Shown one piece after another: positions 9,715 through 64,000 of a DNA stretch of 64,000 bases. The stretch covers positions 62,001 to 126,000 of the forward strand of contig CAXHJY010001087.1 of the NCBI GenBank assembly GCA_964016885.1, given 5' to 3'. The notes under the pieces are model-generated. The model was not told the origin of the DNA. It did not search any database and saw nothing but the letters and a program-made list of their open reading frames with translations. Position 1 is the stretch's first letter, and every line of letters starts with the position of its first letter. Origin of the DNA: Eledone cirrhosa. Its lineage: Eukaryota. The position numbers and the translations under genes were made by a program.

Positions 9715-10469
9715 TATATATACACACACACAGACATACATACATGTGTAAATATGTGTGTGTGACATTTATATAAATGTTACTTTTTATCTTTGTAGGT
9801 TGATGCTGTTGTGAGGTGTATTACCAAAATATTGGCTGCTCCAAGTCACCCAAGTGCCTTCATTCGCAACATCCATATTATACACACACACACACACTGC
9901 TCTTAGCAGATACATTGGGAGAAGTTGTCACTAACTTTGACCTAACTCTTTCTTTTATTTCTATATATATATATATAATGTCCCACCCTTGCAAGCAGGG
10001 AAAAGCGGATGTAAAATGATGATAATTATATATATATTTCTCTACTGAGTTGTGTGAGCCCTGTCCATTCTTCTAGCAACTGTTCGACATGAGTAAGAAA
10101 AAAAATGAAGGGAGACTGTTTTAAAGAGGGAAGGGTTTCTGTTATATTTCTCTAATGTTATTCACTTTTCAAAGCCTTCTGACTCCCATTCTATGTTTTA
10201 TGTATATGAAATTTTATAAAGGAAAACAAATCCTTTTTGAATGTGGCTGACCTGTAAAATAGGGGGAAAAAGACAACATGAACATTTCATTTCCATTAGA
10301 CTTAACAAATTACCATAGCGATAATGTTTAACCCTGTTTTGCTCTAGAAAGGCAAGGGTGTGGGGTTTCCTTTTTTTTTTTTTTTTTTTTTTTTTACCTT
10401 ATTTTTTTCTATTGTATTTTCTCGGATCTCAACTATTTGTATTTTTCTACATTTTCTACTTTGTCACCA

Positions 10470-26479: not shown

Positions 26480-27532
26480 ATGATGATGTTTCCCATGCAA
26501 ACTGTTTATCCAAGTTCATCTTCTGTGGACAATCAATACAGATATGACATCAGCAACAAACCATTTCAACAAGCTGAAGATAACAACCACTCAAAATACC
26601 ATCATCACCACCACCACCACCATCATCATCACCATGAACCCACTTGCCCTCATTATTTAAACCATTCAGGCAAAGGGGCTTACCCATGTCGCAACAACCG
26701 AGAACATTTAAATCCTCCAGATTTACAACCTGTTGCCAAGGTGACAAGTCACAGCAGCAAACCTTACAAGTGTGAGATTTGTCGAAAGAGCTTCAGCCGC
26801 CGAGCAAACCTTCAGAACCATGAACACAGTGCATTTTCTGGTGGTGGTGACAGACAGCAACACCATAGTTGTGTTTACTGCCAGAAAGTGTTTGCTCAGA
26901 AAGCACACTTGCGCAGCCATGAGAGAACACACACAGGAGATCGCCCTTACACATGCTTAGCTTGTCTCAAGTCCTTTAGCCAAAAAGCTCATCTCAAAGT
27001 ACATGAACGTACCCATACTGGAGAACGGCCTTTTAAATGCCCAACCTGTCCGAAAGCATTCAGCCAGAAGGATCATCTTAGTAACCATATAAGGACACAC
27101 TCTGGAGAGCGACCTTTCCAATGTTCCCATTGCTCAAAAGCATTCAGTCAGCGTGCACATCTTCGTAACCATGAGCATACACATGCAAGTCGCAAGCCAT
27201 ATGTCTGCACCTTATGTGACAAAGCGTTTGCTCAAAGAATCAACTTGCTTAGTCACATTAGAACTCATACAGGTGAGAAACCATACTCTTGCGATATTTG
27301 TGGGAAGAATTTCTCCCAAAAAGGCAATCTTAAAACTCATAAACGCACACACGGCAATAAAAAGATCTTTGACTGTAATGTCTGTGGAAAAGTTTTCCCT
27401 CAAAAGGCGATCTTACAATGTCACGAAAAAGCACATATGGTGCCAAACATGGCTGAGGTGAACCGGACATCTAACAAGGACCAGGTTTTCCAGTACAATC
27501 TACCAGAATCTGGTGCTGTCAATGAACTTTAA
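26480..27532 (+). CDS. C2H2 zinc-finger protein with poly-His tract and 8 fingers (first atypical)
   Basis: Intact 350-aa ORF; tandem fingers joined by TGDRPY/TGERPF/SGERPF/TGEKPY linkers; run of about 12 His near the N-terminus. Confidence 0.92.
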   Translation: MMMFPMQTVYPSSSSVDNQYRYDISNKPFQQAEDNNHSKYHHHHHHHHHHHHEPTCPHYLNHSGKGAYPCRNNREHLNPPDLQPVAKVTSHSSKPYKCEICRKSFSRRANLQNHEHSAFSGGGDRQQHHSCVYCQKVFAQKAHLRSHERTHTGDRPYTCLACLKSFSQKAHLKVHERTHTGERPFKCPTCPKAFSQKDHLSNHIRTHSGERPFQCSHCSKAFSQRAHLRNHEHTHASRKPYVCTLCDKAFAQRINLLSHIRTHTGEKPYSCDICGKNFSQKGNLKTHKRTHGNKKIFDCNVCGKVFPQKAILQCHEKAHMVPNMAEVNRTSNKDQVFQYNLPESGAVNEL

Positions 27533-31948: not shown

Positions 31949-34900
31949 CAGTGGTGGATTAACAAAGTAAGCACGTGCTCAGGGCATCAAAGGAAGAAGG
32001 GGCACCTCAAAAATTTTTTATATGATGAATTTACAGTTTAAATTATTAAATTAATTCATTTTATAGCAATTTTCAAAATGAAATAAGAAATGAATAAATT
32101 TGTATAAACATAGTTGTTCATTTCAGTTTATTTGTTAAATCTCAGTTTTTCAGACGTTTATCCTTAGAAATTTTTCTGAAACTCCAATGTATTCTGGTTT
32201 AATTTTAAAATGGCTACATGCTTGTTGAAATGTTTTTGAAGGTTTATGAATATAGCCACCAGCTGAAAGTTTTTTGATACTCCCAATCCCAGCTAACCAA
32301 GGTTTATTTTCTGCTTCTTTTTATTAACAATTCTGTTCATTTTTTTTAGTTTTTTTACAAACTATTATTTGGGTTCACACCATCCTTTTTCAAATCTAAC
32401 CATCAGATCTAATTAACAGATCCCCCAAAAATCTAACCATTCAAATCTAATTAACAGATCCCAAAAACCAAGATGAAACGCATTCAGTTAAGTGGGGCAC
32501 AAAAACAAAAACTTTCAAACAAGAAACAAGAAAAAGCTTCGGAATTAGATTGCAAGACAGCAAAGCTGACTAATTTTTTCTCACAAGTTCCACAACATGA
32601 TTTACAGATTCCAGGTCAAAACCGATATACGTTATCTGAAGTAGACATGAATACGGCAAATACAACTTTGATTACTTCAGAATCAAAATATGATGACATT
32701 AGAAGTACCGAGATGTCGCAAGCATGTTCATCCAGCACATGTCTCACAACTGATCTTACTTTGCCTGTGAATTCTCTTTATTCGGATACCTCTACTGCAA
32801 ATGATGATAGGGCTCAAATAATTGCTGAAAATAGAAGTTTAGAGCACTATGGTGGTGAAATTAATTTGCCTGTAAAAAATGAAGAAAATTACAATTTAGC
32901 GAACGATCCAGGAATGTGGCTTGATTTCTCTGCTAATAATATAGCTTATTGGATTACTTGTGAAGCCAGTATTTGTCAACACCACAACGGGCCATTTGAA
33001 AAGTCTTGCCGTCATTTTAGTAGTGGCAAACCAGTAAGGTATTGCTCACAGAAACTTTTTATTGGGACAAAAGCCAATGGTGAAAAATACAAGAGAGAGT
33101 TACTCTATTCACCATCAAGAGGATCAGTTTATTGTTTTGTTTGTAAACTGTTTGCTCGTGAAAAAAATTCAATTTTTGTTTCAAGAGAAGGGTTCAGTGA
33201 TTGGCGGAATACTATTGTAATTGAAAAGCATGAGAAAAGCATTATTCACCAAGACTCTTTGCTGGCATATTTAACTGGCAGGCAAGGTGCGGGGTTAAAG
33301 TCAGATTTGGAGAAACAAATTCATGAAGAGTGCAATTACTGGGAACATGTTTTGAGGCGTGTCGTAGCTGTTATTTGTACGTTAGCTGAACGTGGCTTGC
33401 CTTAGGAAGTGATGAGAAGTTTGGATCGTTGCAAAATAGGAATTTTTTAGGGCTGCTTGAACTCATAAGCCAGTTTGATCCATTTTTAGCAGACCACATT
33501 TCTAAATATGGAAATTCTGGAAAAGGAAATCCTTCTTACATGTCAAAAACCACTATCGACGAAATTATTCAACTAATGGCACAAAAGGTCCGTGAGTTCA
33601 TTATTAACAAAGTTAAATCTTCTGGTTATTTTAGTTTGCCCATTGTGATTCAACACCAGATTTATCACATAGCGATCAATTGAGTGTTGTACTTAGGTAT
33701 TTACAAGATGGACAGCCTATTGAACGATTTTTAACCTTCATCATAATAGAAAACCACACTGGCGAGAATATGGCGAACCAGGTGCTGCTGCATTTACGTG
33801 AAGCTTGTGGGTTAAATGTTTCAAAATGTAGGGGTCAGACTTATGACAATGCTACTAACATGTCTGGGCGTTATAAGGGGATGCAGCAAAGAATTTTAGA
33901 AACAAACAACTTTGCTATATATGTGCCCTGTGCAGCTCATTCATTAAATCTTGTTGGCCGGAGTGCTGATGACTGCTGTCAAGAGGCTGTTAATTTTTTC
34001 TCCACAGTACAGTAACTCTATAATTTTTTTTCTGCTTCCACTAACTGCTGGAAAATTCTCAAAGATTGTATTAAGAATGAATGTGTCTTGAAATCCCTCT
34101 CTGATACAAGATGGGAAGCACATGCTATGGCAACAGCAGCAATCTTGAAATCGTTCCCTGAGATTTCCGAGGCATTAGAATATATAGCCGAAGATCAATC
34201 ACGAAAGGGAGACGCTAGAAGAGAGGCAAATAATATTGTTGATAAGATGCAAGAGCTAGAATTCGTTTTTATGTTGATTTTTTTAAATGAGATTTTGCAG
34301 AATTTTCACAGAGTAAGCAAAGTTCTACAAAATGAGGATGTGAACTTAAAGACATGTGCAGATCTCTATGTATCATTACCTGACCAACTGAACACCTCAC
34401 GAGATGAATTTGAAAGATATGAAAAAGAGGCGAAGGAAATTCTTCCAGATGTTGATTACAGGACAACTGCAACTCGCAAACGTATTAGAAAAAAAGTACC
34501 CAATGACAGAGATACAGCAGAAGTTTATTTAGATGCCAGAGATAAGTTTCGTATCACCACACTTTACACAATTGTTGACAAACTTGCAGCTGAGATGGAA
34601 AGAAGAGGAGAGATATACAAAGAAATGGCAGAGAAATTTTCTTTTCTTAGTGATGTGCCAAATATAGGCACTCCATCAGCTACTAATATTGAAAGGTATT
34701 CTCAGTACTGTCAAAAGTTGATCGATGCTTATCCAGAGGACTTCAATAGTAATTTCTCAGCTGAGCTTCAGCAGTTTCATTTATATGTGCGCAATAAGAT
34801 GAGTAGAACAGAAAATGTAAAAACAAGATTTAATCATGCTGAACTTTATAAAATTATTGTAAAAGACAATATTCAGTGTGCCTTTCCAAATGTAGACATA

Positions 34901-35291
34901 GCCTTTCGTATATTTTTAACATTAATGGTTACTAACTGCTCAGCGGAGCGTTCATTTTCACGGTTGAAATATATTAAAAATCCCTTCAGAACAACCATAC
35001 AACAATACAGGCTGGATGCTTTATCCCTATTGTGTATAGAAGCAGATGTGTTACGCAAGATTGGTTACAAGGATCTGATCAAAGACTTTGCAAGAAAAAA
35101 AAGCAGGAAAAAATTATTCAATAAATAAAATTATTTTCTCTCTTTCTGTATGTTTTGCTTTATTTTGAAATTTCAATAAATAAAACTTTAATTTACCATA
35201 TATTATTGTTTATTTTTTGATCTACAAATGTATGGGGGCACCATACAAATTTTTAGTGCTTAGGGTCTCTAAGGGTTTTAATCCGGCCCTG
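31949..35291 (+). mobile_element. hAT DNA transposon (ZMYM1/TTF-zinc-finger-type transposase), full length but disrupted
   Basis: TIRs CAGTGGTGGATTAA / TTAATCCGGCCCTG; 8-bp TSD TATATATG at 31941-31948 and 35292-35299; transposase pieces at 32473-35128. Confidence 0.92.
32473..35128 (+). pseudogene. hAT transposase pseudogene (about 4 ORF pieces)
   Basis: YCFVCKLF/GFSDW (TTF finger), NFLGLLELI, CRGQTYDNATNMSG, CAAHSLNL, LSDTRW, SAERSFSRLK; frameshifts or stops near 33405, 33650 and 34015. Confidence 0.9.
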
Positions 35292-37711: not shown

Positions 37712-38369
37712 TGTATATATATGTATATATGTATATACATATATATGTATATAAATATCTTTAAGTCGTTTGGAAGCCTCGACAATGCAAATGGGTAAAT
37801 CTCCGGGTAACAAGGTCCGGTGGTGGAGAGAGAAATGTAAGTGGGTGTACGTTGAGATGCGTGGTGTGTATAAGATGTGTAGAATGAAGGGAAGAGTATA
37901 AAGGATAAAAATAAAAATAACAACACAAGAGAGAGTTACCTTGGGAGAGATTTAATAGTCCCTATATATTTCGGATTCACATCCATCAACTGGGTTTTTT
38001 TTCCGGGGTGGGGGAAAAGGTTGTCTGTCGTACAACGTCTTTCGCTGTTTGTTGTTTTGAATATCTGAGGTATTCGGCAGAACGCGCGTGCGCGAGAAAT
38101 GGGGTCGGTCGTACAGAGGTCAGCGGCCGAATGAGGGAGTGGGATAGCGCTAGCTGTCAGTCCATTCTCTGCCTGTTTGTTAAATGTTACTGTGTGTGTT
38201 GTGTGTGTGTGTTGTGTGTGTGTGTTGTTGCTTTGTTCATCTGTATTGGCAGTGTAGTATGTTCGCATGGTGGAATGCTACTGTGTGTGTGTGCGTGTGC
38301 GTGTGTGTAGTTGTCTCGTTTGCGTGTGTGTGTGTGCGTGTGTTGTGTGTTGTTGCATCGCTTGTTAAC

Positions 38370-40048
38370 TTAAACCAGCCATTTCATTTCGCTTCTCTCT
38401 GATCGGTTGTTTATTTGCGGTTGCAGTCGTTTGATAAAAAGCACTTCCTTGATACGTAACGTGCCGACGTTTCTTTCAGTCGCTAGAATTGTGACAATGG
38501 GCCTTCCGTCTTTGTTTCCGCATTTGTCTATGTGTTTCCGGAAAGACGAGGCCCTGGTTTTAGTGTGTTCCTTGATCCGGATGTGCAAAGGTCGAATTGT
38601 GCTACCTATGTAGTATTGGTTGCACCTGTCACATTCTATCTTATACACGACGTATGTGCGTAGGCAACAGTTAGCATGGCGTATCGGGCAGTCTCTGAGG
38701 GAGCATGCGTCAGTAGATTTTTCGGGTTTCCTGGAGAGGCATCTTCGCAGGGAGGGGCCCGAGTGGGCCAGGTGGATGTCGAGGCCCTCCCTCCGTATAG
38801 CCTTGCGGATAGCGTTGGTGGTTTTCTCGCCCAGGTGTGGCATTTTAAGGAAGCACTTGCCTTGGGTGCTTCTCTGTCTCTTGCGTCTGGTGTCTCCTAT
38901 TCTGTCTGTGATCGAGGTAGGGTACCCGTTCGTCTCCAGCACCTCGAGGAATCGCTTGGTATGAGTGACACCACTCGCGGGATCTCTGCATATGTTTTTG
39001 ATTCGCGCGATCTCGTTCGTGATGTATCCTCTTTTGGCACTGTTAGGGAGGGCGGACTTGTAGTGAACGAATAGGTCCCTGCAGGCTGCGTTTCTATAGA
39101 AGTTGCAGTGGATCCCTCCTTGTTCCGTGATGTTGATTCGGAAGTCAAGGAGGGCAAGTGACCCGTCTTCGTTGGGGTGTTCAACACTGAAGTCAATGTT
39201 CTCGTCCGTGTTGTTGAACGTCTCATAGATTCTGTTCGCCGTGTCTTGGGAAGATGTGAGGATGAGGATATCGTCCACGTATCTTGAGAAAAAGGCTACG
39301 GCGTTGGGGTGGCAGGCGTTGAGTGCCTTGCGTTCGAGGTTGTCCATGTAGGAGATCGCTAGCACACCTGATAGGCTTGATCCCATGGGCAATCCCGAGG
39401 TTTGTTGGTATATTTGGTCAAGGAATCCGAAGTAGGTGTTGTCGACGACGATGGATAGGAGTTGGTGGATGTCAGTGGTGGTGAACCCGAAGCAGTGTAG
39501 GTCGGTGGATTGGACGCGTTCCATTAGTATATTGACGGCCGGGAGTGCCGTGACCGAGGTGTAGAGAGCGACTACATCAAGGCTGAAGGCATATCTGTTA
39601 TTCCTTCTGGTGTCGGGATCCATTTGATGCAGGCGCTTCAACACCTCCTCGGAGCTGTTAACGTGTCCCGGCAAGGTGTCTAAGATGGGTTTGAGTATTC
39701 TGGCTAGGAGCCATGAAATTTTGTAGAGTGGTCCCTCCACGCTCGATACGATGGGCCTGATTTTCAGGTCAGGTCCCTGTTTGTGTGTTTTCATGAGGTG
39801 GTAGAAGGCGGGTAGTCTGCTGTTCCTCGTGAGGAGGTTGTATCTCAGCTTCTTCGGGAGCTTCCGCCGGTCGCAGATGTTGGTCCAGGCGGAGTTGATG
39901 TGTTCTTCTATCTGCGCGGGAGTGATTCCCGTGACCTTGGAGTAGAGGTTGTCATCGTCAAGGTGTTGGAGGGCCAGGGTGTTGTAGGCCTCTCTGCTGA
40001 TGACGCAGAATTCTTTTCCCTTGTCGGAGGGGAGATAGATGAGGTTCT
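38370..40048 (-). CDS. Penelope-type RT + GIY-YIG endonuclease, N-terminally truncated, open frame with intact YVDD
   Basis: SDKG, IRPIVS, SLDVVALYTSV, GLPMGSSLS, RYVDD, VVYKIEC..C..YYIGST.R, KE...IK...PQINN. Confidence 0.85.
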
Positions 40049-41767
40049 CACCAAATCTCAACTCACCACTCTCTCCAACCTAAAATCGAAGAACCTCATC
40101 TATCTCCCCTCCGACAAGGGAAAAGAATTCTGCGTCATCAGCAGAGAGGCCTACAACACCCTGGCCCTCCAACACCTTGACGATGACAACCTCTACTCCA
40201 AGGTCACGGGAATCACTCCCGCGCAGATAGAAGAACACATCAACTCCGCCTGGACCAACATCTGCGACCGGCGGAAGCTCCCGAAGAAGCTGAGATACAA
40301 CCTCCTCACGAGGAACAGCAGACTACCCGCCTTCTACCATCTCGTGAAAACACACAAACAGGGACCCGACCTGAAAATCAGGCCCATCGTATCGAGCGTG
40401 GAGGGACCACTCTACAAAATTTCATGGCTCCTAGCCAGAATACTCAAACCCATCTTAGACACCTTGCCGGGACACGTTAACAGCTCCGAGGAGGTGTTGA
40501 AGCGCCTGCATCAAATGGATCCCGACACCAGAAGGAATAACAGATATGCCTTCAGCCTTGATGTAGTCGCTCTCTACACCTCGGTCCCGGCACTCCCGGC
40601 CGTCAATATACTAATGGAACGCGTCCAATCCACCGACCTACACTGCTTCGGGCTTACCACCACTGACATCCACCAACTCCTATCCATCGTCGTCGACAAC
40701 ACCTACTTCGGTTTCCTTGACCAAATATACCAAAAAACCTCGGGATTGCCCATGGGATCAAGCCTATCAGGTGTGCTAGCGATCTCCTAATGGACAACCT
40801 CGAACGCAAGGCACTCAACGCCTGCCACCCCAACGCCGTAGCCTTTTTCTCAAGATACGTGGACAATATCCTCATCCTCACATCTTCCCAAGACACGGCG
40901 AACAGAATCTATGAGACGTTCAACAACACGGACGAGAACATTGACTTCAGTGTTGAACACCCCAACGAAGACGGGTCACTTGCCCTCCTCGACTTCCGAA
41001 TCAACATCACGGAACAAGGAGGGATCCACTGCAACTTCTATAGAAACGCAGCCTGCAGGGACCTATTCGTTCACTACAAGTCCGCCCTCCCTAACGGTGC
41101 CAAAAGAGGATACATCACGAACGAGATCGCGCGAATCAAAAACAGATGCAGCGATCCCGCGAGTGGTATCACTCATACCAAGCGATTCCTCGAGGTGCTG
41201 GAGACGAACGGGTACCCTACCTCGATCACAGACAGAATAGGAGACACCAGACGCAAGAGACAGAGAAGCACCCAAGGCAAGTGCTTCCTTAAAATGCCAC
41301 ACCTGGGCGAGAAAACCACCAACGCTATCCGCAAGGCTATACGGAGGGAGGGCCTCGACATCCACCTGGCCCACTCGGGCCCCTCTCTGCGAAGATGCCT
41401 CTCCAGGAAACCCGAAAAATCTACTGACGCATGCTCCCTCAGAGACTGCCCGATACGCCATGCTAACTGTTGCCTACGCACATACGTCGTGTATAAGATA
41501 GAATGTGACAGGTGCAACCAATACTACATAGGTAGCACAATTCGACCTTTGCACATCCGGATCAAGGAACACACTAAAACCAGGGCCTCGTCTTTCCGGA
41601 AACACATAGACAAATGCGGAAACAAAGACGGAACGCCCATTGTCACAATTCTAGCGACTGAAAGAAACGTCGGCACGTTACGTATCAAGGAAGCGCTTTT
41701 TATCAAACGACTGCAACCGCAAATAAACAACCGATCAGAGAGAAGCGAAATGAAATGGCTGGTTTAA
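40049..41767 (+). pseudogene. Second Penelope ORF copy, disabled
   Basis: 1-bp deletion near 40790 (CCTAATGG versus CCTACATGG) and YVDD changed to YVDN. Confidence 0.9.
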
Positions 41768-42157
41768 GTTAACAAGCGATGCAACAACACACAACACACG
41801 CAAACGAGTAAACTACACACACACACGCACACACACAGTAGCATTCCACCATACGAACATACTACATTGCCAATACAGATAAACAAGGCAACAACACACA
41901 CACACAACACACACACTCAAGCGAGACAACAACACACGCTCACACACACACAGTAACATTTAACAAACAGGCAGAGAATGGACTGACAGCTAGCGCCATC
42001 CCACTCCCTCATTCGGCCGCTGACCTCTGTACGACCGACCGCATTTCTCGCGCACGCGCGTTCTGCCGAATACCTCAGATATTCAAAACATCAAACAGCG
42101 AAAGACGCGTTCCGGACTTGTCCGACAGACAACCTTTTCCCCCACCCCGGAAAAAAC

Positions 42158-42193
42158 CCCCTGTTGATGGATGTGAATCCGAAATATATAGGG
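42158..42193 (+). ncRNA. Variant-core hammerhead-like motif in the Penelope 3' region (family C; mirror copy 37960-37994 on minus)
   Basis: CCC-CTGTTGA-T-GGAT gtga ATCC-GAAA-TATA-TA-GGG, then ATTAAA; core is CUGUUGA instead of CUGAUGA. Confidence 0.55.
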
Positions 42194-42472
42194 ACTATTA
42201 AATCTCTCCCAAGGTAACTCTCTCTTGTGTTGTTATTTTTATTTTTATCCTTTATACTCTTCCCTTCATTCTACACATCTCACACATCTTATACACACCA
42301 CGCATCTCAACGTACACCCACTTACATCTCTCTCTCCACCACCGGACTTTGTTACCCGGAGATTTACCCATTTGGATTGTCGAGGCTTCCAAACGACTTA
42401 AAGATATTTACTTATTGTTCCACAATGCTTCAAGCAAACTTCAATACTCTCTTATATATGTATATATATATG

Positions 42473-42754: not shown

Positions 42755-42885
42755 TATATACATATATACATATGTATATATGTATATATGTATATGTATA
42801 TACATAAGTATATATATGTGTATATATATATGTATATATAGTGATGAAACATAAGTCAATTGCATGAACTCATAATCCTTTATTT

Positions 42886-42941
42886 ACTGCTATATATATT
42901 TCGATGATAGCCATTGAATGGCTATGACCTCATCAGGCAGT
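42886..42941 (-). ncRNA. Type I hammerhead ribozyme (family D, left arm)
   Basis: Reverse complement of 43607-43662. Confidence 0.85.
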
Positions 42942-43194
42942 TAGTCAGTTCTTAGATATGCCAGCTCTGTGTTTATAGTGTTGATGGTATCAGAGCCTTG
43001 GGATATTGGTGTTGGAGGCTTAAAGCGTCCGTATGCGGTAGGCCGTCTGAGCACTCGATGCCCATATATATATATATGTCCAATAAATTCCTTTCGTCGT
43101 AACACTGATTCTCTTTTTTCTGTGATATGTATATGTATATATATACATGTATATATCTATGTGTATATATTTATATATGTATATATATATATAT

Positions 43195-43249
<55 letters not shown>

Positions 43250-43606
43250 CTTTTAAATTCCATCTGTGATAACATTTTACACGTTTTTATTGTATGTAAA
43301 CTTCCCCCTTTGTATTTGTCCCCTTCTTTTGTGCCCCTGTGGCTAATAAAGAAATATATCTATCTATCTATCTATACATATATACACATACAGATATATA
43401 CATATATATATATACATATACATATCACAGAAAAAAGAGAATCAGTGTTACGACGAAAGGAATTTATTGGACATATATATATATATGGGCATCGAGTGCT
43501 CAGACGGCCTACCGCATGGACGTTTTAAGCATCCAACACCAATGTCCCAAGGCTCTGATACCATCAACACTATAAACACAGAGCTGGCATATCTAAGAAC
43601 TGACTA

Positions 43607-43662
43607 ACTGCCTGATGAGGTCATAGCCATTCAATGGCTATCATCGAAATATATATAGCAGT
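43607..43662 (+). ncRNA. Type I hammerhead ribozyme (family D)
   Basis: ACTGC-CTGATGA-GGTC ATAGCCAT tca ATGGCTAT CATC-GAAA-TATATA-TA-GCAGT, followed by AATAAA. Confidence 0.85.
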
Positions 43663-43769
43663 AAATAAAGGATTATGAGTTCATGCAATTGACTTATGTT
43701 TCATCACTATATATACATATATATATACATATATATACTTATGTATATACATATACATATATACATATG

Positions 43770-43889: not shown

Positions 43890-43979
43890 GTAGGAGGTGA
43901 GTTTTATTGTAGTACAATAAAGCAATGCAGATATCGGATAAGTAGCACTCTACAGTTTGTAGGACTGGAGTATAAATAA

Positions 43980-45631
43980 TATATAAGATCAAAAGATGGT
44001 TAAAAGAGTTCCATGTATTTTATTATGCGCATTTCAAAAACAAATATCATCTTTTAAATACCAACTTAAAAGAACCAACACGGCACTCTCAGAACTCATA
44101 TGGTCCTTGAAAGACAAAAATATTAACTATAACATCTCTTGGAGGAAGGTTTGTTCTGCCTCTCCATACTTGAATACCTCTCTATCCAAAATATGTAATC
44201 TCTGTTTATGTGAAAAATTTACCATTATATCTAATTTAGATTCTATAATAAATAGACGCACTGACTTGTTTTCTCTCTGCTTGCATAAATTCCACAGAAT
44301 ATTCCATAAAGTATACAGCTAATATCTAATACTTTACCAATTTAAAATCCTTTTTCTCAAAGGCACATATATATATATATATTTCTTTAAAAATATACCC
44401 ATCTTTCTACCTTATTTCAATGTTATTTATTATACATTATATAATACTAGTTCCCCATTCTATATCATTCCTATTTATCACTTCCCTTTCTTCCTTTTTT
44501 CTTTTAATTTCTAACCTCTAATCTGTACCTTTTCTTCCCAGATACTTCTAAATTCTTATTATTACTCACCACAATATATCCACTCTTTCTTCTTCCATTC
44601 TATCACTGGCCATAAAACTTACTATTACCCTTTTAAATACTTTATAGTATCACCTTGAAAAATCCTTCGCAAACATAAACATTTTTTTTTTGACGTTAGA
44701 TTATTCATCCTCAATTCATTATTTTTTCTCCCTTTCATGCTCGTCTAACTTCTACATATTACACATCACAACACATAAAAACCCTAACTAATCTCCTTTA
44801 TTACATTATATTATTACTATTAGGAAATACTTCATAAACATACATATTTTGATGTTAAGGTCTTCTCCTTAAACACTATCTCCTTCTTTGCTTTCTGCGC
44901 TCATTTGTAAACAAACTATTTATATATTACACATACATATTACTTTACGTAAAAACATACTTAAACACTAACTAATTCCTCTAAATTCATAATTCATCCA
45001 CTCTTCTACTTCTTTTCACAATATATCTTTAATTACATTACTATTTTTATTTTTAATAATACATATCAACAATTTATTTCCATCGCACATATTATTAAAC
45101 CCTTCAATATTCAAACCTTAACTTAATATTATTCTTAATACATATTAACAATTTCTTTTCATCGCACATATTATAAACCCTTCAATATACAAACCTTAAT
45201 TTAACATTATTCTTAAATTTTTCTCTTCGTTAATTTTCAAATTCTTTTAATATATTATCTTCCAACGGTTTTTTAACCTCTCTCTGTAAAACAATATATT
45301 TTTCTCAGTTATAAAAGCTATCTCTCTCTTTCTATCACCCATCTCTCCTCCTATCTCATCCTTCCTTATTATACTCCTCCCCCTCCATCCTTTACTCTCA
45401 TCTCCTCCTCTTTTTCATCCCCCCCTCACCCCCCCCCCCCCATATCACACATCAATCTAAAACTACTTTTCATATGTTGATTTAAAACTGCACTATTCAC
45501 AAGTGTTTTTTAACCTTCATATCATGTCTCCCTATTTTATCTGACGAAAACGCAAATGTCATCGCATGATGATATTTGTTTTTGAAATGCGCATAATAAA
45601 ATACATGGAACGCTTTTAACCATCTTTTGAT

Positions 45632-51968: not shown

Positions 51969-52064
51969 ATATATACATGTATATATATACATGTATATAT
52001 ATATATATACATGTATATATATATATACATGTATATATATATATGTATATATATATATAAATAT

Positions 52065-52095
<31 letters not shown>

Positions 52096-52269
52096 CATAT
52101 GTATATATATATATAAATATATACATGTATATATATATATATATATATATGTGTATATATATACATAATAATATATGTAGTAAGAAACAGGGTTGAAGAA
52201 CCACATTGTTTGAAATATTTAACCATGAAGCAGACAGAATGATAAAATAAAATTATACAAACTTTCATT

Positions 52270-52337
<68 letters not shown>

Positions 52338-52381
52338 TATATATATATATATATATATAATGTAGGAAGTGAGTAATATTT

Positions 52382-52417
<36 letters not shown>

Positions 52418-52429
52418 TATATATAAATG

Positions 52430-53080
52430 GGAAAAATGAAATTTCATTTCTCACTCTTAGTACGGCTGATACTTAAATATAAGTACGTATACATACATAT
52501 ATGTATACAGACGTACAGTAGTATATATATAGATACACACATGCACACATATATATGTGTACGTATGGGTTTACCGAACATTTATTATAATGTTCGGTTT
52601 GTTTGTAAACAAACAGCCCGAATTAAGCCGTACATTGTTCGGCAACCATCGTTGCCCTTGTGTTCAACACTGACAAAGGAACGATGAACTAGTTTCTAGC
52701 TTATTAGCTTTCATCAGCACCGTATACCTTCCTGTCAGTCGATTAAACGTTTGAAAGTATATACTTTCTTTATGCATATTAATGGCTGAGCAGCCTAATT
52801 TGTATATCGATATATCGAGTTAGTTAGTCGACCGAAAACGATAAAGGGAAAAAATGAAATTTCATTTCTCACTCCTAGTACGGCTGATACTTAAATATAA
52901 GTATGTATACAGACGATGGTTGCCGAAGAATGTATGGCTTAATTCAGGCTGTTTGTTTACAAACAAACCGAACATTATAATAAATGTTCGGTAAACCCAT
53001 ACGTACATATATATATGGTTTGCATGTATGTATATAATACTACTATACGTCTGTATACATATATGTATGTACGTATACAT
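52430..53080 (-). mobile_element. HHR-containing non-coding element: ~418-nt unit, partial direct repeat, then an inversion (truncated copy at 50123-50375)
   Basis: AAAAATGAAATTTCATTTCTCACTC..AGTACGGCTGATACTTAAA at about 52432 and 52850; ~52913-53080 is an inverted copy of ~52485-52651. Confidence 0.7.
52681..52723 (-). ncRNA. Type I hammerhead ribozyme (family H)
   Basis: Minus strand ACGGTG-CTGATGA-A AGCT aata AGCT A-GAAA-CTAG-TT-CATCGT; GUU site; A.A mismatch at the base of stem II. Confidence 0.72.
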
Positions 53081-53429
53081 ATATATATATATATATATAT
53101 ATCATCTTCGTTTAACATCTATCTTCCACGCTAGCATGGGTATGTATATATTTCATCATCATCATCATCATCATCATTTTACGTCCGCTTTTCCCTGCTT
53201 GCAAGGGTAGGACGGGAACTGATTCTGGCTTGATTTCTACAGCTGGATGCCCTTCCTAACACCAACCTCATTTACAGTGAGTGCTCTCTGCTTTTTTTCG
53301 TTGCGCCTACACAACCACTTTAATGTGAAATAAAGTGTCTTGCTCAAGGAAACAATACATCACCCGGTCTGAGAATTGAACTCACAACCTTTCAATTGTA
53401 AGGTCGTGAGTTACATATATATATATATA

Positions 53430-54151
53430 TGAGGAACAAAGCTTGCATGCTCCGTTGGATGTGTAATAGTAATATACGTGAATGGCAAAGCATAAATGAA
53501 CTAAGTGAGAAATTAGGAATAAGAGGGATCAGATGCTGTTTACTCGAGAGAAGACTACGTTGGTATGGTCACGTGATGCGCATGAAAGACGACAGCTGTA
53601 TAAAGAAGTGCAGGGCGATCAAAATTGATGGTAGCCACGGAGTAGGCAGACCCAGAAAAACCTGGGACAATTTGATAAATTCCGACCTTACACACACCTC
53701 TCCAAGACAATGTCACTGGATCAAGACCTTTGGTGCTACGCAGTAATACAGAAGACCGGCCTTGCCTAAGTACAAAGCGAAACATACAGTCAGTAGGCAC
53801 CTCTTAACCAAAATACCCCCTATCCCACTACCCCCACCCCCACCCCACCCCCATCTACACCACCCCTTTCTCTGTAAAGTTATGTTGGTACCACAACATC
53901 CAGTCCTAAATAAATGAGGTTGTGTAGGTGTCACGACAAAAAAAAAAACACGCTGTAATGTGGCCGTATAGGTAACACGGTATAAACCTCCCAGTCCACA
54001 CTGTAAACATGGTTGTTGTTAGGAAAGGCATCCAGCCGTAGAAAACCCGCCAGACAGTCCTATACGAGCAAGACGACCAATCTTGCCTCAAGTGGGACAA
54101 TTCCCATCTAAACCCATGCTAGCGTGAAAGATAGATGTTAAACGATGATGA

Positions 54152-54152
<1 letters not shown>
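53430..54152 (+). mobile_element. RTE LINE 3' fragment (same family, plus strand)
   Basis: RNKACMLRWMC...[11 protein letters not shown]...GRPRKTW; 3' UTR and (GAT)n tail. Confidence 0.85.
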
Positions 54153-54221
<69 letters not shown>

Positions 54222-54397
54222 GTGTGTATATATATATATATATTGATTCTTTAGAATTTGCCACTGACCAAGTAGGCAGTGAATTTTTTCAGTGCCCTGG
54301 AATTTAGTCCCCGCTAGCTTTATTCCATCCACTGAATTATTATTTTTATATGGGTTCCTAGTGTCCGCGCATTGCCTGGGAACTTAGTTGAGAATAG

Positions 54398-54479
54398 ACT
54401 CCCTGATGACGTAAGGACTTCTCTATAGTTACATTACGTAACTATATTTATTCCCTTACAGAAACTAATTAGTTGGAGT
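54398..54479 (+). ncRNA. Type I hammerhead ribozyme (family I, copy 1)
   Basis: ACTCC-CTGATGA-C GTAAGG..TATAGTTAC attac GTAACTATA..CCTTAC A-GAAA-CTAATTAG-TT-GGAGT; GUU site at 54474. Confidence 0.85.
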
Positions 54480-54936
54480 GGAAATTTTAGTAAGTAAGTT
54501 AATTTTTAATTTTTAAAATTTTCTTATTTTACGTCTTTCATATAATTGTTCTGCATCCCCTGCATAGAACCACAAAGGTACTAAGACATAACATATATAT
54601 TTGCTAGCATGGGTATACATCTGTATACATATGTTGGTAGATATACCAATTCTCTATATTTATCTCCAAATTATTTGTTGAACGAAACTTGCCAAAATTT
54701 ACTGCTATGGTTCATGGTAGTAGTTAGGCTCTTGTCATAATACCACCTCACTCCTCACTGATTAACCTCAGTGTCACGTGATTGATTCTTTAGAATTTGC
54801 CACTGACCAAGTAGGCAGTGAATTTTTTCAGTGCCCTGGAATTTAGTCCCCGCTAGCTTTATTCCATCCACTGAATTATTATTTTTATATGGGTTCCTAG
54901 TGTCCGCGCATTGCCTGGGAACTTAGCTGAGAATAG

Positions 54937-55018
54937 ACTCCCTGATGACGTAAGGACTTCTCTATAGTTACATTACGTAACTATATTTATTCCCTTACAG
55001 AAACTAATTAGTTGGAGT
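54937..55018 (+). ncRNA. Type I hammerhead ribozyme (family I, copy 2)
   Basis: Same sequence as 54398-54479; GUU site at 55013. Confidence 0.85.
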
Positions 55019-55077
55019 GGAAATTTTAGTAAGTAAGTTAGTTTTTAATTTTTAAAATTTTCTTATTTTAGTCTTTC

Positions 55078-55141
<64 letters not shown>

Positions 55142-55146
55142 GTCTG

Positions 55147-55211
<65 letters not shown>

Positions 55212-55216
55212 GTCTG

Positions 55217-55250
<34 letters not shown>

Positions 55251-58200
55251 TTTTAATATGTAAAGTAATTAATGATATTGTCTGACAGATATATAGGTTA
55301 ACCAAAGTGCTACAGATAGTCACTATTAGAACCTAAAATCACCTCTATTAATATAAATTTTAAGAAATTCCACTAGGAGCAGTAACATAATTTAGTTTCT
55401 GCTGAGATAACCATAATTCTAACAATGAACTCACTCTCGAAACAACAACAACAATCTCAATACGGATAAGCGGATCTGTGATCCTTTGAGAAAACTAAAT
55501 AAAATAGGTCCTTTTGTTGATAGACATATATAACCTGTACCAGTATAACCGTTCCATTTTTTGATCTGGGAAAGTTAACGATATTTAGTAGCGTCAAAGC
55601 TGGTTTCAAGTATGCAATTAAGCTGGCTAAATTGTCTGACCCCACCAACCGCAGAGAAGGAAATCGCTCTGCATACATGCACACATACATACATACACCC
55701 CAATAAATCAAGATGGTAACTACATTCCATTTCTCCTTGAGAATTCTTCAGCTCAGGCTAATTCTTCCCACACCACTACAATACCACAGTTTTTCTTACC
55801 TATCCCTTTATAAGTAAGGAAACATGTATACAGTTACACACCCACACACACAACCACTTTCAGAAAATATATAGAAAAAATATAATTAATTTATTCTAAC
55901 ACTTTTCATTAACAACCTCTAAAGAACCTTTACCCTTATATGGACAACTTATCATTACTAACAAGAATCACCTAAGCCATGCCCTTGATGAGATGGCCAG
56001 TCCACTGCAAATCTATTTGTCAACAGTCGGGAATTAGCTCACACACTCTACTATCCCAAGTATTGAGTACTCTGTTAAATAATGGTCTGACTTGTTTAAT
56101 ACTGGTTTAATCCTGATATATATATATTTTATATATATATGTGTGTGTGTGTGTATCATCAACGTTTTTATGTCCGCTTTTCCTCGTTTGCATGGGTGGG
56201 ATGAGCCTTTTTCAGCACAGTGTCTCTCCACTCGCCACATTTCTTCATCATCTCATCAACGAGTCTCAGCAATTTGTGGTCAGTTCTCACCACCTCTGCC
56301 CAGGGCTTTCTTGGTCTACCACTACTGCAGCTTCCTTCCACTGGCATTTCCTGGCACTTCTTCAGCCATCGATCACAATCCAGTCTTCTCTCCTGCACAC
56401 CACCTCGGATTCCTCTTAAACTTAACTTTTCCTTCAGTTTATCCTACCTCTGCCTTTCTCTCACATTTACATTGCACATCCAACAAAGCAAGCCTGCTTC
56501 ATTTCTCTCCAGCCTGCGCATGTTTTCTGCAGTCACAGCCATGTTTCACTACCATGCAGCATCACACTTTGCACACAGATGTCATACAGTCGTCCTTTTG
56601 TTTGTAAGGAGAAACTTTTTGTTGTCAACAGTGGGAGTAGTTCTCTTAACTTCTTCTATTCTAGCTATTTTGCTTTCAGAGCACCCTCCACTATTGCTGA
56701 TTAAGTCACCTAGATAGCAGAAGCTATCAACCACTTCTATGGACCCTTTCTGTGACTTGAAGATGTTTATATTACTGCTGCTCTTCCCTTTGATTACTCC
56801 TGTGCATCTTCTACATGCAAAGTCTTTCCTTCCTTTTGTCTTTGATATCTGTAGCACAGGTGGTGATATTTATTAATGTCCAGATAACTTTGTATAGAAC
56901 ATAGGGATCCTTCCAGTCATGGCTGACCTTGGGTTTATACCTAAAAAGTTCCTTTCTGAGGCACTAGCCTAAGTAAGGTGTTTTTGTGGAAGAATAACAG
57001 TTGTCCATGCATACCAGACTCTCTTCTCCATGGCACAAATGTTGTTCAAAGGAAAAGTAAAGGTTTGACACAGCTTGACACCAGTGATATTGCAACATGA
57101 AATAAAGGACACAATGTGCAATCCAATCCAGGAATCTAACTCACTAACTCTAAATTATGAGCCCAACACCCTAACCACTAAGCCACGCACCTTCACATAC
57201 ATTGTATACCATGGCTAGAAAAGTATTCCAAGGTTTCAGGATTGGTCATTCTTTGAGAAAAAGTCGAATAGTTTCTTTTCCCTCAGAGAAGGTGGCATAA
57301 AATTCCTCTTCTCATGACATACAAACTTAACCGTTTTCATACCAAACAGTTTGAAACCAACCTGGTTCTATAGCACTAAACGGTTTGTTTTAAAGTGTTT
57401 TATCTAAATACATTCCAGCATAATTTTATGTAAGAAACCTTGTTAAATTATGTTCCAAACACTAGCTTAATAATGAGAAAATTATATTACTAAATCCATC
57501 TAAATTCTTCCTTATTTTTTAAATTAATTGAAAATCCTAGGCAGTGTCTTTCATTAGAAATATATTTATCTAAAACCTTCATTAGAATTATAGTAATCAT
57601 CATCATCATCACCATTTACCGTCAATTTACCATGCTAGCATGGGTAAGATGAGTTATCCCATTGTGAGACAAGTCAGATCAGGTGATCATGTCTTGCTCA
57701 TACAGAACCGTTTCTAGCTTGGTTTCTATGGCTGGATGCTCTTCCTAATGCCAACCACATTTACAGACACTGCTTTATTTTATATATATATTATACCTGT
57801 GAGAGAAGTCTAACTATTGTCAATGTGACTTAACAGTGCACCCATTTCTTATTGGGATGAACTGTACTCTCAAACTGTTTAACCTGACTTCAAAAGAACT
57901 TTGATTTGAAGTTAAAAAAGTTAATGTTGTATTTTTACAAACAACATAGTGCAAACTGGCCAAAGGGGGAGTCTCTATAAAGTTACTCAATCTGCTAGAA
58001 ATAGCACCTAACTCTTCCTCAAATCACACCCTACTGTTTTAGAAGAGATGTAGTCTTAAATATCCTTAAAAAGATGTGTACCTGGGTATATAGTAACCTA
58101 GGCTAGCCATACAATGTATGCCTAGATATTTTGTGCCTGAGGCTAGCCCTACAATGTGTACCTGGGTATTAAGTGCCCAGATATTTAGTGCCCTAGGCTA

Positions 58201-59270: not shown

Positions 59271-59659
59271 TACATACATGGTATATCTTTTGCAAATCTC
59301 CAGGATAACAATAAACACAATTTGCCAGAAAGACAGATATTTTTATATATACTGATTCATCACACAACAATTTTTGTTATTATTTGTATTCTTTTTTTTT
59401 AAATTTATTATTTAACTTGTTTCTGCAAGATTCCACACATTAAAATGAAAAAAAAAAATAAAAACATCTTTAAAAAATTTTAAAAAAGGAAATATTTCAT
59501 TTTTACTTTATATTAAATTTTTTTTCTCAAATTAAAATCTTTTTCCCCTTCCAATTTGGCAAAATTAAATTATTGCTAATGACAATGGACATTTTAAAAA
59601 GATTCAGCCAGTTATGTTGACCAAAAGATAGAAAAGAATTCTTTCCCTTCATTCTTGTT

Positions 59660-62600
59660 GTTTTTGTTAGTATTATTGCTGTTGTTACTGTTGTTGTGGT
59701 TAGCATTGTTGTTACTGTAGTTGTTAGTATTATCACTACTATTGTTGTTGTTAGTATTATTGCTACTATTGTTGTTGTTAGTATAGTTACTATTGTTGTT
59801 GTTAGTATAGTTACTATTGTTGTTGTTACTATTGTTGTTGTTAGTATAGTTACTATTGTTGTTGTTAGTATAGTTACTGTTGTTGTTGTTAGTATTGTTA
59901 CTATTGTTGTTGTTAGTATAGTTACTATTGTTGTTGTTACTATTGTTGTTGTTACTATTGTTGTTGTTAGTATAGTTACTATTGTTGTTGTTAGTATAGT
60001 TACTATTGTTGTTGTTAGTATTGTTACTATTGTTGTTGTTAGTATAGTTACTATTGTTGTTGTTAGTATAGTTACTATTGTTGTTGTTAGTATAGTTACT
60101 ATTGTTGTTGTTAGTATAGTTACTATTGTTGTTGTTAGTATAGTTACTATTGTTGTTGTTAGTATAGTTACTATTGTTGTTGTTAGTATTATTGTTGTTG
60201 TTGTTAGTATTGTTACTATTGTTGTTGTTAGTATTGTTACTATTGTTGTTGTTAGTATAGTTACTATTGTTGTTGTTAGTATAGTTACTATTGTTGTTGT
60301 TAGTATAGTTACTATTGTTGTTAGTATTGTTACTATTGTTGTTGTTAGTATTGTTACTATTGTTGTTAGTATTGTTACTATTGTTGTTGTTAGTATTATT
60401 GTTGTTGTTGTTAGTATTGTTACTATTGTTGTTGTTAGTATAGTTACTATTGTTGTTGTTAGTATTGTTACTATTGTTGTTGTTAGTATTATTGTTGTTG
60501 TTGTTAGTATTGTTACTATTGTTGTTGTTAGTATTGTTACTATTGTTGTTGTTAGTATTGTTACTATTGTTGTTGTTAGTATAGTTACTATTGTTGTTGT
60601 TAGTATTGTTACTATTGTTGTTGTTAGTATTATTGTTGTTGTTAGTATAGTTACTATTGTTGTTGTTAGTATAGTTACGATTGTTGTTGTTAGTATAGTT
60701 ACTATTGTTGTTGTTAGTATTGTTGTTGTTAGTATAGTTACTATTGTTGTTGTTAGTATAGTTACTATTGTTGTTGTTAGTATAGTTACTATTGTTGTTG
60801 TTAGTATAGTTACTATTGTTGTTGTTAGTATAGTTACTATTGTTGTTGTTAGTATTGTTGTTGTTAGTATAGTTACTATTGTTGTTGTTACTATTGTTGT
60901 TGTTAGTATAGTTACTATTGTTGTTGTTAGTATTGTTGTTGTTAGTATAGTTACTATTGTTGTTGTTACTATTGTTGTTGTTAGTATAGTTACTATTGTT
61001 GTTGTTAGTATTGTTACTATTGTTGTTGTTAGTATAGTTACTGTTGTTGTTGTTAGTATAGTTACTATTGTTGTTGTTACTATTGTTGTTGTTAGTATAG
61101 TTACTGTTGTTGTTGTTAGTATAGTTACTATTGTTGTTGTTAGTATTGTTACTATTGTTGTTGTTAGTATTGTTACTATTGTTGTTGTTAGTATAGTTAC
61201 TATTGTTGTTGTTAGTATAGTTACTATTGTTGTTGTTAGTATAGTTACTATTGTTGTTGTTAGTATTGTTACTATTGTTGTTGTTAGTATTGTTACTATT
61301 GTTGTTGTTAGTATTGTTACTATTGTTGTTGTTAGTATAGTTACTATTGTTGTTGTTAGTATAGTTACTATTGTTGTTGTTAGTATTGTTACTATTGTTG
61401 TTGTTAGTATTGTTACTATTGTTGTTGTTAGTATTGTTACTATTGTTGTTGTTAGTATAGTTACTATTGTTGTTGTTAGTATAGTTACTATTGTTGTTGT
61501 TAGTATTGTTACTATTGTTGTTGTTAGTATTGTTACTATTGTTGTTGTTAGTATAGTTACTATTGTTGTTGTTAGTATAGTTACTATTGTTGTTGTTAGT
61601 ATAGTTACTATTGTTGTTGTTAGTATAGTTACTATTGTTGTTGTTAGTATTGTTACTATTGTTGTTGTTAGTATAGTTACTATTGTTGTTGTTAGTATAG
61701 TTACTATTGTTGTTGTTAGTATAGTTACTATTGTTGTTGTTAGTATTGTTACTATTGTTGTTGTTAGTATTATTGTTGTTGTTGTTAGTATTGTTACTAT
61801 TGTTGTTGTTAGTATAGTTACTATTGTTGTTGTTAGTATAGTTACTATTGTTGTTGTTAGTATAGTTACTATTGTTGTTGTTAGTATAGTTACTATTGTT
61901 GTTGTTAGTATTGTTACTATTGTTGTTGTTAGTATTGTTACTATTGTTGTTGTTAGTATTGTTACTATTGTTGTTGTTAGTATTATTGTTGTTGTTGTTA
62001 GTATTGTTACTATTGTTGTTGTTAGTATTGTTACCATTGTTGTTGTTAGTATTATTGTTGTTGTTGTTAGTATTGTTACTATTGTTGTTGTTAGTATTGT
62101 TACTATTGTTGTTGTTAGTATTGTTACTATTGTTGTTGTTAGTATAGTTACTATTGTTGTTGTTAGTATAGTTACTATTGTTGTTGTTAGTATTGTTACT
62201 ATTGTTGTTGTTAGTATTATTGTTGTTGTTAGTATAGTTACTATTGTTGTTGTTAGTATTGTTACTATTGTTGTTGTTAGTATTATTGTTGTTGTTAGTA
62301 TAGTTACTATTGTTGTTGTTAGTATAGTTACGATTGTTGTTGTTAGTATAGTTACTATTGTTGTTGTTAGTATTGTTACTATTGTTGTTGTTAGTATTAT
62401 TGTTGTTGTTGTTAGTATTGTTACTATTGTTGTTGTTAGTATAGTTACTATTGTTGTTGTTAGTATAGTTACTATTGTTGTTGTTAGTATAGTTACTATT
62501 GTTGTTGTTAGTATAGTTACTATTGTTGTTGTTAGTATAGTTACTATTGTTGTTGTTAGTATTGTTGTTGTTAGTATAGTTACTATTGTTGTTGTTAGTA

Positions 62601-64000
62601 TAGTTACTATTGTTGTTGTTAGTATAGTTACTATTGTTGTTGTTAGTATAGTTACTATTGTTGTTGTTAGTATAGTTACTATTGTTGTTGTTAGTATAGT
62701 TACTATTGTTGTTGTTAGTATTGTTGTTGTTAGTATAGTTACTATTGTTGTTGTTAGTATTGTTGTTGTTAGTATAGTTACTATTGTTGTTGTTAGTATA
62801 GTTACTATTGTTGTTGTTAGTATTGTTACTATTGTTGTTGTTAGTATAGTTACTATTGTTGTTGTTAGTATAGTTACTATTGTTGTTGTTAGTATTGTTA
62901 CTATTGTTGTTGTTAGTATAGTTACTATTGTTGTTGTTAGTATAGTTACTATTGTTGTTGTTAGTATAGTTACTATTGTTGTTGTTAGTATTATTGTTGT
63001 TGTTGTTAGTATTGTTACTATTGTTGTTGTTAGTATAGTTACTATTGTTGTTGTTAGTATAGTTACTATTGTTGTTGTTAGTATAGTTACTATTGTTGTT
63101 GTTAGTATAGTTACTATTGTTGTTGTTAGTATTGTTACTATTGTTGTTGTTAGTATAGTTACTATTGTTGTTGTTAGTATAGTTACTATTGTTGTTGTTA
63201 GTATTGTTACTATTGTTGTTGTTAGTATAGTTACTATTGTTGTTGTTAGTATAGTTACTATTGTTGTTGTTAGTATAGTTACTATTGTTGTTGTTAGTAT
63301 TGTTACTATTGTTGTTGTTACTATTGTTGTTGTTAGTATAGTTACTATTGTTGTTGTTACTATTGTTGTTGTTAGTATAGTTACTATTGTTGTTGTTAGT
63401 ATAGTTACTATTGTTGTTGTTAGTATAGTTACTGTTGTTGTTGTTAGTATAGTTACTATTGTTGTTGTTAGTATAGTTACTATTGTTTTTGTTAGTATAG
63501 TTACTATTGTTGTTGTTAGTATAGTTACTATTGTTGTTGTTAGTATAGTTACTATTGTTGTTGTTAGTATAGTTACTATTGTTGTTGTTAGTATAGTTAC
63601 TATTGTTGTTGTTAGTATAGTTACTATTGTTGTTGTTAGTATTGTTACTATTGTTGTTGTTAGTATAGTTACTATTGTTGTTGTTAGTATTGTTACTATT
63701 GTTGTTGTTAGTATAGTTACTGTTGTTGTTGTTAGTATAGTTACTATTGTTGTTGTTACTATTGTTGTTGTTAGTATAGTTACTGTTGTTGTTGTTAGTA
63801 TAGTTACTATTGTTGTTGTTAGTATAGTTACTATTGTTGTTGTTAGTATTGTTACTATTGTTGTTGTTAGTATTGTTACTATTGTTGTTGTTAGTATAGT
63901 TACTATTGTTGTTGTTAGTATAGTTACTATTGTTGTTGTTAGTATAGTTACTATTGTTGTTGTTAGTATTGTTACTATTGTTGTTGTTAGTATTGTTACT
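59660..64000. repeat. 24-bp minisatellite/satellite array (more than 4.3 kb, runs off window)
   Basis: Unit TTGTTGTTGTTAGTAT(A/T)GTTACTA with shorter and longer variants. Confidence 0.97.

Follow-up and report, generated by a model that had tools for sequence, protein, structure and literature searches.

How did a protein-free repeat carrying two hammerhead ribozymes come to lie inside a (TA)n tract? The question is raised by positions 54242–55082 of the window, the 64,000-nt stretch of an Eledone cirrhosa contig analyzed here. A first-pass annotation of this DNA had described near-identical repeats of about 300 nt, 539 nt apart, each with a hammerhead, lacking an ORF and set in (TA)n, and our analysis confirms this observation. 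The direct repeats (54242–54531 and 54781–55070, plus strand) are 99% identical over 290 ungapped nucleotides at a spacing of 539 nt; a longer alignment of the same repeats (54242–54544 and 54781–55082) covers 303 nt at 99.0% identity with one gap, the two copies being set apart by two substitutions and an indel of 1 nt. Each contains a type I hammerhead on the plus strand, the first at 54398–54479 and the second, identical to it, at 54937–55018 (the core patterns starting at 54398 and 54937). Their GUU triplets have their last bases at 54474 and 55013, positions at which the annotation had placed the cuts and which the sequence bears out; cleavage after them would release a 539-nt monomer (54475–55013, plus strand). 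This monomer is strongly self-paired (z −5.68; 0 of 100 shuffles as good), and its longest Met-ORF, when it is read as a circle, is 43 aa.

TRF places (TA)n on either side of the copy, at 54154–54243 and 55078–55251. The 5′ flank (54154–54241) is the target microsatellite, within which a target duplication is unreadable, and the 3′ flank (55078–55251) is joined to the end of the second repeat at a position that we call site A. An internal copy of site A (54536–54544), 70 nt past the first cut (cut+70), lies at the foot of a predicted hairpin on the plus strand, and a second start site, B (54640–54664, plus strand; cut+190), lies at the base of a predicted long hairpin but is not an end in this copy. 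The whole insertion (54242–55082, plus strand; locus L001) is a lone, 5′-truncated arm of 841 nt, or 1.55 units, begun at site A and reading through two hammerheads; on the model of the unit its 5′ end lies at position 310 and its 3′ end at 70. Elsewhere the window holds a non-LTR RT remnant (1438–2727), two multi-finger C2H2 ORFs (10332–11690 and 26456–27529), a hAT transposase remnant (34016–35125), and, at 59655–64000, about 180 copies of a 24-bp satellite.

The Hammerhead Fold Is Maintained by Compensatory Changes

In hammerhead 1, stem I (54398–54402 paired with 54475–54479) has 5 bp, the CUGAUGA core occupies 54403–54409, and an unpaired C (54410) faces A54460. Stem II (54411–54459) is bipartite and about 50 nt long, with a 6-bp outer helix, a 7 × 7 internal loop, and a 9-bp inner helix, and is followed by GAAA (54461–54464) and a 12-nt palindromic stem III (54463–54474) that ends in GUU, all on the plus strand. 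This architecture departs from the canonical type I hammerhead, which has a 6-bp stem I, a 4-bp stem II, and a conserved loop–loop contact. Rfam hammerhead models run over positions 52000–58000 at E ≤ 5 returned no hammerhead match, only microsatellite noise, probably because of the long stem II, and the ribozyme was recognized instead by a structural scan and by covariation.

For the covariation analysis, 73 hammerheads, about one per arm, were picked from 108 distinct ones. Stem III, and stem I for most rows, are fixed by the search pattern, so that stem III gives no evidence for selection on the fold, and the case is carried by stem II together with the variants of stem I. In this set 95.4% of 1,661 cells are paired, and 112 cells are changed on both sides, compared with 29.3 in shuffles (0 of 500 as high), while controls slid out of register pair at only 30–45%. 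At one position of stem II, pairs of the types U-A, C-G, A-U, and G-C are all present, and the outer stem II is found in five fully compensated versions. Though kinship alone can beat shuffles, the four Watson–Crick types at one pair, together with the slid controls, make the fold secure, and the hammerhead fold is under selection. The basal C·A mismatch of stem II, which the annotation had listed as a caveat, is real but is not a sign of decay: the 3′ A is present in all but one listed type, the 5′ base varies among C, A, and T, and the pair is a feature of the family. A mismatch at the same place is also found in the axolotl HHR_Amex2, as given in the accessible text of PMC7229834.

The palindrome noted in the first pass likewise proved real. 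Its self-duplex has a predicted energy of −10.8 kcal/mol, alone it forms no hairpin, and the catalytic fold of a single hammerhead, with a stem III of 2 bp and a tetraloop, is predicted to lie 2.5 kcal/mol above the minimum-energy fold. The palindromes of two copies can also pair with each other, so that dimeric cleavage may be possible. The minimal hammerheads of Penelope-like elements (PLEs), in the portions of PMC4209133 consulted, are alike in their short stem I, long stem II with an unpaired base at its 5′ end, and palindromic, dimerizable stem III, whereas the present family retains the 2-bp stem III with tetraloop and so should be foldable as a monomer.

A Family of Thousands of ORF-Less Tandem Units

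The exact hammerhead pattern, with stem II left free, has at least 3,558 matches in the genome, compared with 0 for the reversed control, and a pattern spanning the cut has at least 6,055. A DNA search of the species' own 3.0-Gb genome gave 3,050 candidates, and full units among the 40 scored are 92–97% identical. Complete type I hammerhead units follow one another consecutively, as in retrozyme tandems, in arrays of up to about 7 and about 9 units that end at A and B with an inverted arm; the window repeats are partial tandem units rather than LTRs around a unique core. From the loci we took 62 cut-to-cut monomers, 37 of them distinct, which measure 511–594 nt with a GC content of 0.34–0.38. 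Read as circles, all 37 have a longest Met-ORF of 27–63 aa, and none encodes an RT or GIY-YIG ORF. Subfamilies lie up to about 25% apart (20–25%), and all are ORF-less. No signature of A-to-I editing is present in the copies (A>G 0.65%, T>C 0.59%; p = 0.43).

These data dispose of the idea that the unit is single-copy, which the annotation had held open, and with it the reading of the locus as a tandem duplication of local origin, or a DNA satellite, in which a hammerhead look-alike arose by chance. The 99% identity of the window repeats is what such a duplication would leave, but thousands of dispersed copies against none for the control, the compensatory changes, and the fixed ends and inversions described below refute it, and we assign it practically no probability.

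On its sequence features the family is an animal non-LTR retrozyme with a PLE-type hammerhead. The class is thus a known one, the non-autonomous Penelope-like element, and the family is not an autonomous PLE; the number of matches and the arrays support the retrozyme-type, multicopy, and multimeric character that had been proposed. Animal non-LTR retrozymes, in the available parts of PMC7229834 and bioRxiv 10.64898/2026.07.22.740005, are alike in their tandem, ORF-less, low-GC repeats with one type I hammerhead per unit, in their thousands of copies, and in their self-paired monomers. With reported lengths of 51–972 bp (bioRxiv 10.64898/2026.07.22.740005, accessible text), the monomer falls within the range of the class and is not, contrary to the earlier suggestion, unusually long. 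The family differs in its bipartite stem II of about 50 nt and in forming dispersed (TA)n insertions marked by inversions and by two fixed ends, features absent from the accessible text of the same two papers. Circular RNA has been demonstrated for those animal retrozymes, as reported there, whereas the present family is known here from genomic DNA. The retrozyme papers, in their accessible main text, do not mention "octopus," nor PMC7229834 "cephalopod," supplements aside. We found neither this family nor a counted A-with-B rule described in the literature, though supplements or Repbase/Dfam may list the family.

Other hammerhead elements were observed alongside. On the minus strand of the window, at about 52420–52990, an ORF-less-looking element among TA-rich repeats has a minimal hammerhead (52688–52717) with a palindromic stem III and a GUU site, and direct repeats of 74 nt at a spacing of 418 nt; L064, L075, and L155 contain related sequence, and the element is likely another retrozyme family. 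At about 42840–43710 an inverted-repeat element in (TA)n has a hammerhead in each arm (43612–43654, plus strand; 42894–42936, minus strand), with an AUA site and a palindromic stem III. L214–L225 (e.g., G000:C28:19800992-19801760) represent a different family, whose stem II is long and whose palindromic stem III covaries; its tandem spacing is 692 nt in L214, it has a fixed end about 300 nt past the cut, into (TA)n, and it has no match to the window unit.

Insertions Have Two Fixed 3′ Ends, and A Pairs with B

Arms were mapped in 113 non-redundant loci, after 17 overlapping loci had been dropped; 59 were taken in order along one contig (C1) as hammerhead-pattern matches, and 29 and 25 came from two other searches. 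The 197 3′ ends comprise 87 at A, 89 at B, 17 elsewhere, and 4 at locus edges, such that, edges excluded, 176 of 193 lie at A or B. A microsatellite adjoins 174 of these 176 ends, and several of the other 3′ ends are profile breaks or later disruptions. The ends are thus not freely permuted, as the multimers envisaged in the first pass would be, but fall at two sites. The pairing of arms is as regular as their position. Among 74 head-to-head pairs, 56 are AB, none is AA or BB, 14 involve another end, and 4 are cut by a locus edge (p = 1.4e-17); in the position-sampled set by itself, AB was found in 26 of 26. A later set, scored by eye, gave 19 AB pairs and one AA pair (L207), the latter counting against the explanation that we favor below.

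The two arms of an insertion come from a common source. For 38 of 43 pairs the partner lies within the closest 10% of arms, it is best or tied in 19 of 43 and worse than the median in 2, and the median divergence to the partner arm is 3.4%, compared with 14.8%. The idea that A and B arms derive from two unrelated RNAs was considered, as the partner beat the best other arm in only 15 of 45 cases; it is ruled out by the 38 of 43 partners in the closest 10% and by the difference of 1.69% between arms at shared polymorphisms.

Site B, which carries a CTCT in the window copy that correlates with (CT)n tails, shows a further feature of its own. Runs of 4–27 CT units are present at 18 of 52 terminal B sites, whereas all 73 internal B sites have at most 2 CT units. 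Terminal (CT)4–27 runs occur in 15 of 19 loci with an internal CTCT, compared with 0 of 18 loci without it. In AB pairs with a CT run, the far flank lacks such a run in 10 of 12. Reiterative copying during priming likely produces the CT runs. It is possible that they reflect instead a choice of compound targets or later expansion: in the remaining 2 of 12 pairs a CT run is present on the opposite side too, which fits pre-existing compound targets and speaks to that extent against our explanation.

Insertion Anatomy Links the Family to Penelope-Like Elements

Two fixed 3′ ends, an inverted 5′-truncated arm, and a microsatellite target are the marks of PLE mobilization, and all three were found, supporting the earlier suggestion that PLE proteins move the element. 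EN+ PLEs with Neptune/Poseidon-type pseudo-LTRs (pLTRs), in the accessible portions of PMC8557442, PMC3846280, and PMC11167929, share with the family two RT start sites or an optional tail, a head-to-head inverted 5′-truncated arm, a microsatellite target, and a hammerhead upstream of the start sites. The PLE "tail" is described as an optional extension often present on one end (PMC8557442 and PMC3846280, in the passages seen), and in vitro a PLE uses two RT start sites and cleaves and extends both strands of the target (PMC11167929, likewise). The longer end of the family therefore corresponds to this tail, and the tail to the two in vitro start sites. The family differs from EN+ PLEs in having no RT or GIY-YIG ORF, in a tail of 120 nt as opposed to their 30–40 nt, and in the lack of a sequence match to the sampled pLTRs; moreover, where the excerpts of those papers have the tail often on one end, the pairing of A with B is counted here. 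For animal retrozymes the link to PLEs was drawn from co-occurrence and pLTR phylogeny, in the papers' accessible text, whereas in this family it comes from the anatomy of insertions.

Autonomous RT plus GIY-YIG elements of the same genome also end in (TA)n. One such family has a short end and an end 43 nt longer, and in each of the 5 inverted pairs scored by eye a short end is matched with a long one; the PLE at 38–42 kb of the window does likewise, with ends about 50 nt apart. This window PLE (37756–42457) is a head-to-head inverted pair in (TA)n with RT plus GIY-YIG at the C terminus, and it contains, at 42161–42189, a motif that resembles a hammerhead and has CUGUUGA as its core. A recurrent fixed end beside (TA)n was also observed at 43890–44200 of the window and in the flanks of L026, L030, and L071, with a PLE-like GIY-YIG C-terminal remnant beyond it that reads away from the microsatellite. 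In L145, L149, L155, L163–L166, L170, and L180 we observed young PLE families, which we take by resemblance to be Neptune-like, with 3′ UTR hammerheads in which stem III is palindromic and the core is of the U3-A8 variant. We draw no evidence from a weak resemblance, seen by eye, of end A to one Neptune-like 3′ end.

Does the unit instead represent the pLTR and tail of an autonomous PLE, with masters outside the sample and the copies being truncated cis products? The PLE-type traits of the hammerhead, whose long stem II has an unpaired base at its 5′ end and whose stem I is of 5 bp (as in the available text of PMC4209133), would fit, as would the two ends and inversions, which are PLE hallmarks, and only 50 of 10,596 GIY-YIG candidates were looked at. 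These 50, the 30 best and 20 with long frames from 150 scored, were searched for the tandem pLTR of a truncated PLE that the annotation had cautioned about, and in 0 of 50 is the unit a terminal repeat, an absence of a partner that also weighs against our own explanation. The 3′ UTRs of the sampled GIY-YIG loci gave no nhmmer match to the unit, none of another 29 loci, all from one PLE family, has it as a pLTR, and two of the 50 contain separate insertions of the family. Upstream of 49 free 5′ ends and downstream of 22 other 3′ ends we found no shared, fixed ORF-bearing sequence; the flank ORF matches were the head-to-head PLE of L015, one other upstream, and two weak ones downstream. Complete ORF-less units standing head-to-tail up to about 9 times, and subfamilies 20–25% apart that all lack an ORF, argue further against a pLTR, and we regard this origin as quite improbable. 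At L015 (1201–3420) an A-ended arm lies head-to-head with a 5′-truncated autonomous PLE, both with short ends; since the joint pairs short with short it does not name the partner, and it may be either a chimera or a nesting.

Genomic 5′ Ends Accumulate at the Predicted Cut

If the hammerhead cuts the template RNA, cDNAs should end at the scissile bond. Among 127 5′ ends, 16 fall within cut+1 to +20, compared with 4.6 expected (p = 1.5e-5, corrected for locus selection), this bin being 1 of 27 and picked after data inspection. The bin at cut+401 to +420 is raised too (12 compared with 5.7), and the two AT-rich bins that follow cut+1 to +20 contain 7 compared with 10. Genome-wide, 53 matches break exactly at the scissile bond, or 44 after removal of 9 look-alikes from the partner arm; control breaks number 15 at cut+3 and 3 at cut−5, the controls having been screened less closely than the 53. 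Inspection of 29 distinct loci gave 21 true cut-site ends, 7 look-alikes, and 1 mutated hammerhead. Both arms stop at the bond in 8 of 17 two-arm cases, and seven of these 8 are joined with few or no extra bases.

A rough estimate puts the share of passes that stop at the bond at about 2%, roughly nine times as high as the per-base mean of 0.22%. With exact-cut ends at about 1–2% of passes, most templates would be uncut there; the approximately 6,000 copies in which the cut was read through imply that cleavage is partial or that the RNA is circular. In vitro, cleavage was seen for only 1 of 9 Xenopus retrozyme dimers (bioRxiv 10.64898/2026.07.22.740005, accessible text), which weighs against the cleavage reading. 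The excess of 5′ ends is likely an indirect footprint of hammerhead cleavage in living cells. The in vivo activity of PLE-type hammerheads has been called "still a mystery" (PMC7761336, in the passage available), and the genomic 5′ ends of this family, in contrast, point to it. We did not find genomic 5′ ends at the cut of a PLE-type hammerhead described in the literature.

The excess could alternatively stem from RT stalling or fold-back at the palindrome or stem I, the fold being kept for protein binding or priming. The 12-nt palindrome adjoins the site, and some inverted pairs join inside it (L213). Moreover, according to the accessible text of PMC11167929, PLE hammerhead cleavage is dispensable for insertion, as mutants still insert in vitro, and RNA-seq ends at the cut site were not found for the anole Poseidon. 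However, the excess sits at the scissile bond itself, with ends that keep no base of the palindrome and carry 0–3 extra bases. Few breaks (3) lie 5 nt inside the palindrome, and a stalling RT should halt at cut+5, the 3′ edge of stem I, but cut+3 has only 15. We therefore consider stalling or fold-back unlikely.

The form of the template is a separate matter. In the classic retrozyme cycle, 539-nt monomers would be ligated to circles, and rolling-circle RT on these would be the main source of multi-unit arms, a scheme that differs from our preferred reading only in template form. Circles have been demonstrated for coral, mussel, and axolotl retrozymes (PMC7229834, accessible text), and circularization of the family's RNA is expected by analogy. 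They would explain why 6,055 copies read through the cut and about 44 stop there, why 48 of 127 arms are longer than one unit plus 70 nt, why arrays of 7–9 units act as single A/B insertions, and why some arrays are very uniform (L032, with 2 differences in 1,009 sites). Yet circles have no 5′ end, and 21 of the 29 inspected loci stop at the cut. Ten of these 21 pass one or two hammerheads beforehand, fitting partly cut linear multimers. Units within an arm, in addition, differ from each other as two arms do (1.51% compared with 1.69% at shared polymorphisms, p = 0.51), which lends no support to one circle read repeatedly. Circles as the main source thus seem to us a serious but somewhat doubtful alternative.

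A Model for Insertion and Its Implications

We think it probable that the window locus is an 841-nt, 1.55-unit copy of a protein-free hammerhead repeat that was pasted into (TA)n in trans by a PLE enzyme, from RNA that was partly cut. In this mechanism, a PLE protein, probably a dimer, would nick both strands of (TA)n, and cDNA would be primed at A by one nick and at B by its counterpart, the same transcript, or the same pool of transcripts, serving both. Each cDNA would extend upstream until it drops off or reaches an RNA 5′ end made by the hammerhead, and the two cDNA ends would then join head-to-head, or a single arm would join the flank, as in the window copy. Slippage on the CTCT during priming at B likely adds the (CT)n, and multi-unit arms would come from uncut multimeric RNA, perhaps from circles too.

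In L1 twin priming, two primed cDNAs give rise to an inversion, and in R2 a 5′ HDV-like ribozyme sets the template's 5′ end. The family differs from both in that its start sites are both fixed, its arms overlap in sequence, its ribozyme is a hammerhead and not HDV-like, and it is non-coding. For the mechanism in full, in which a PLE dimer would prime both nicked strands at fixed A and B sites with telomerase-like (CT)n slippage and a hammerhead-made 5′ end, so that the family would offer the first genomic evidence found of in vivo template cleavage and of retrozymes moving on partly cut linear multimers and not only on circles, we see the chances as evenly balanced.

Since the class is already described, the element alone is a modest find, and its value lies in making open questions testable. 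These are whether PLE-type hammerheads cut in vivo, whether PLEs mobilize animal retrozymes, and by what route the head-to-head inversions of PLEs come to carry a tail on one side. Reconstitution experiments have a ready substrate here, since the RNA is short and non-coding and both its start sites and its cut are mapped. If the mechanism is true, the family would be a natural record, thousands strong, of the Penelope insertion reaction.
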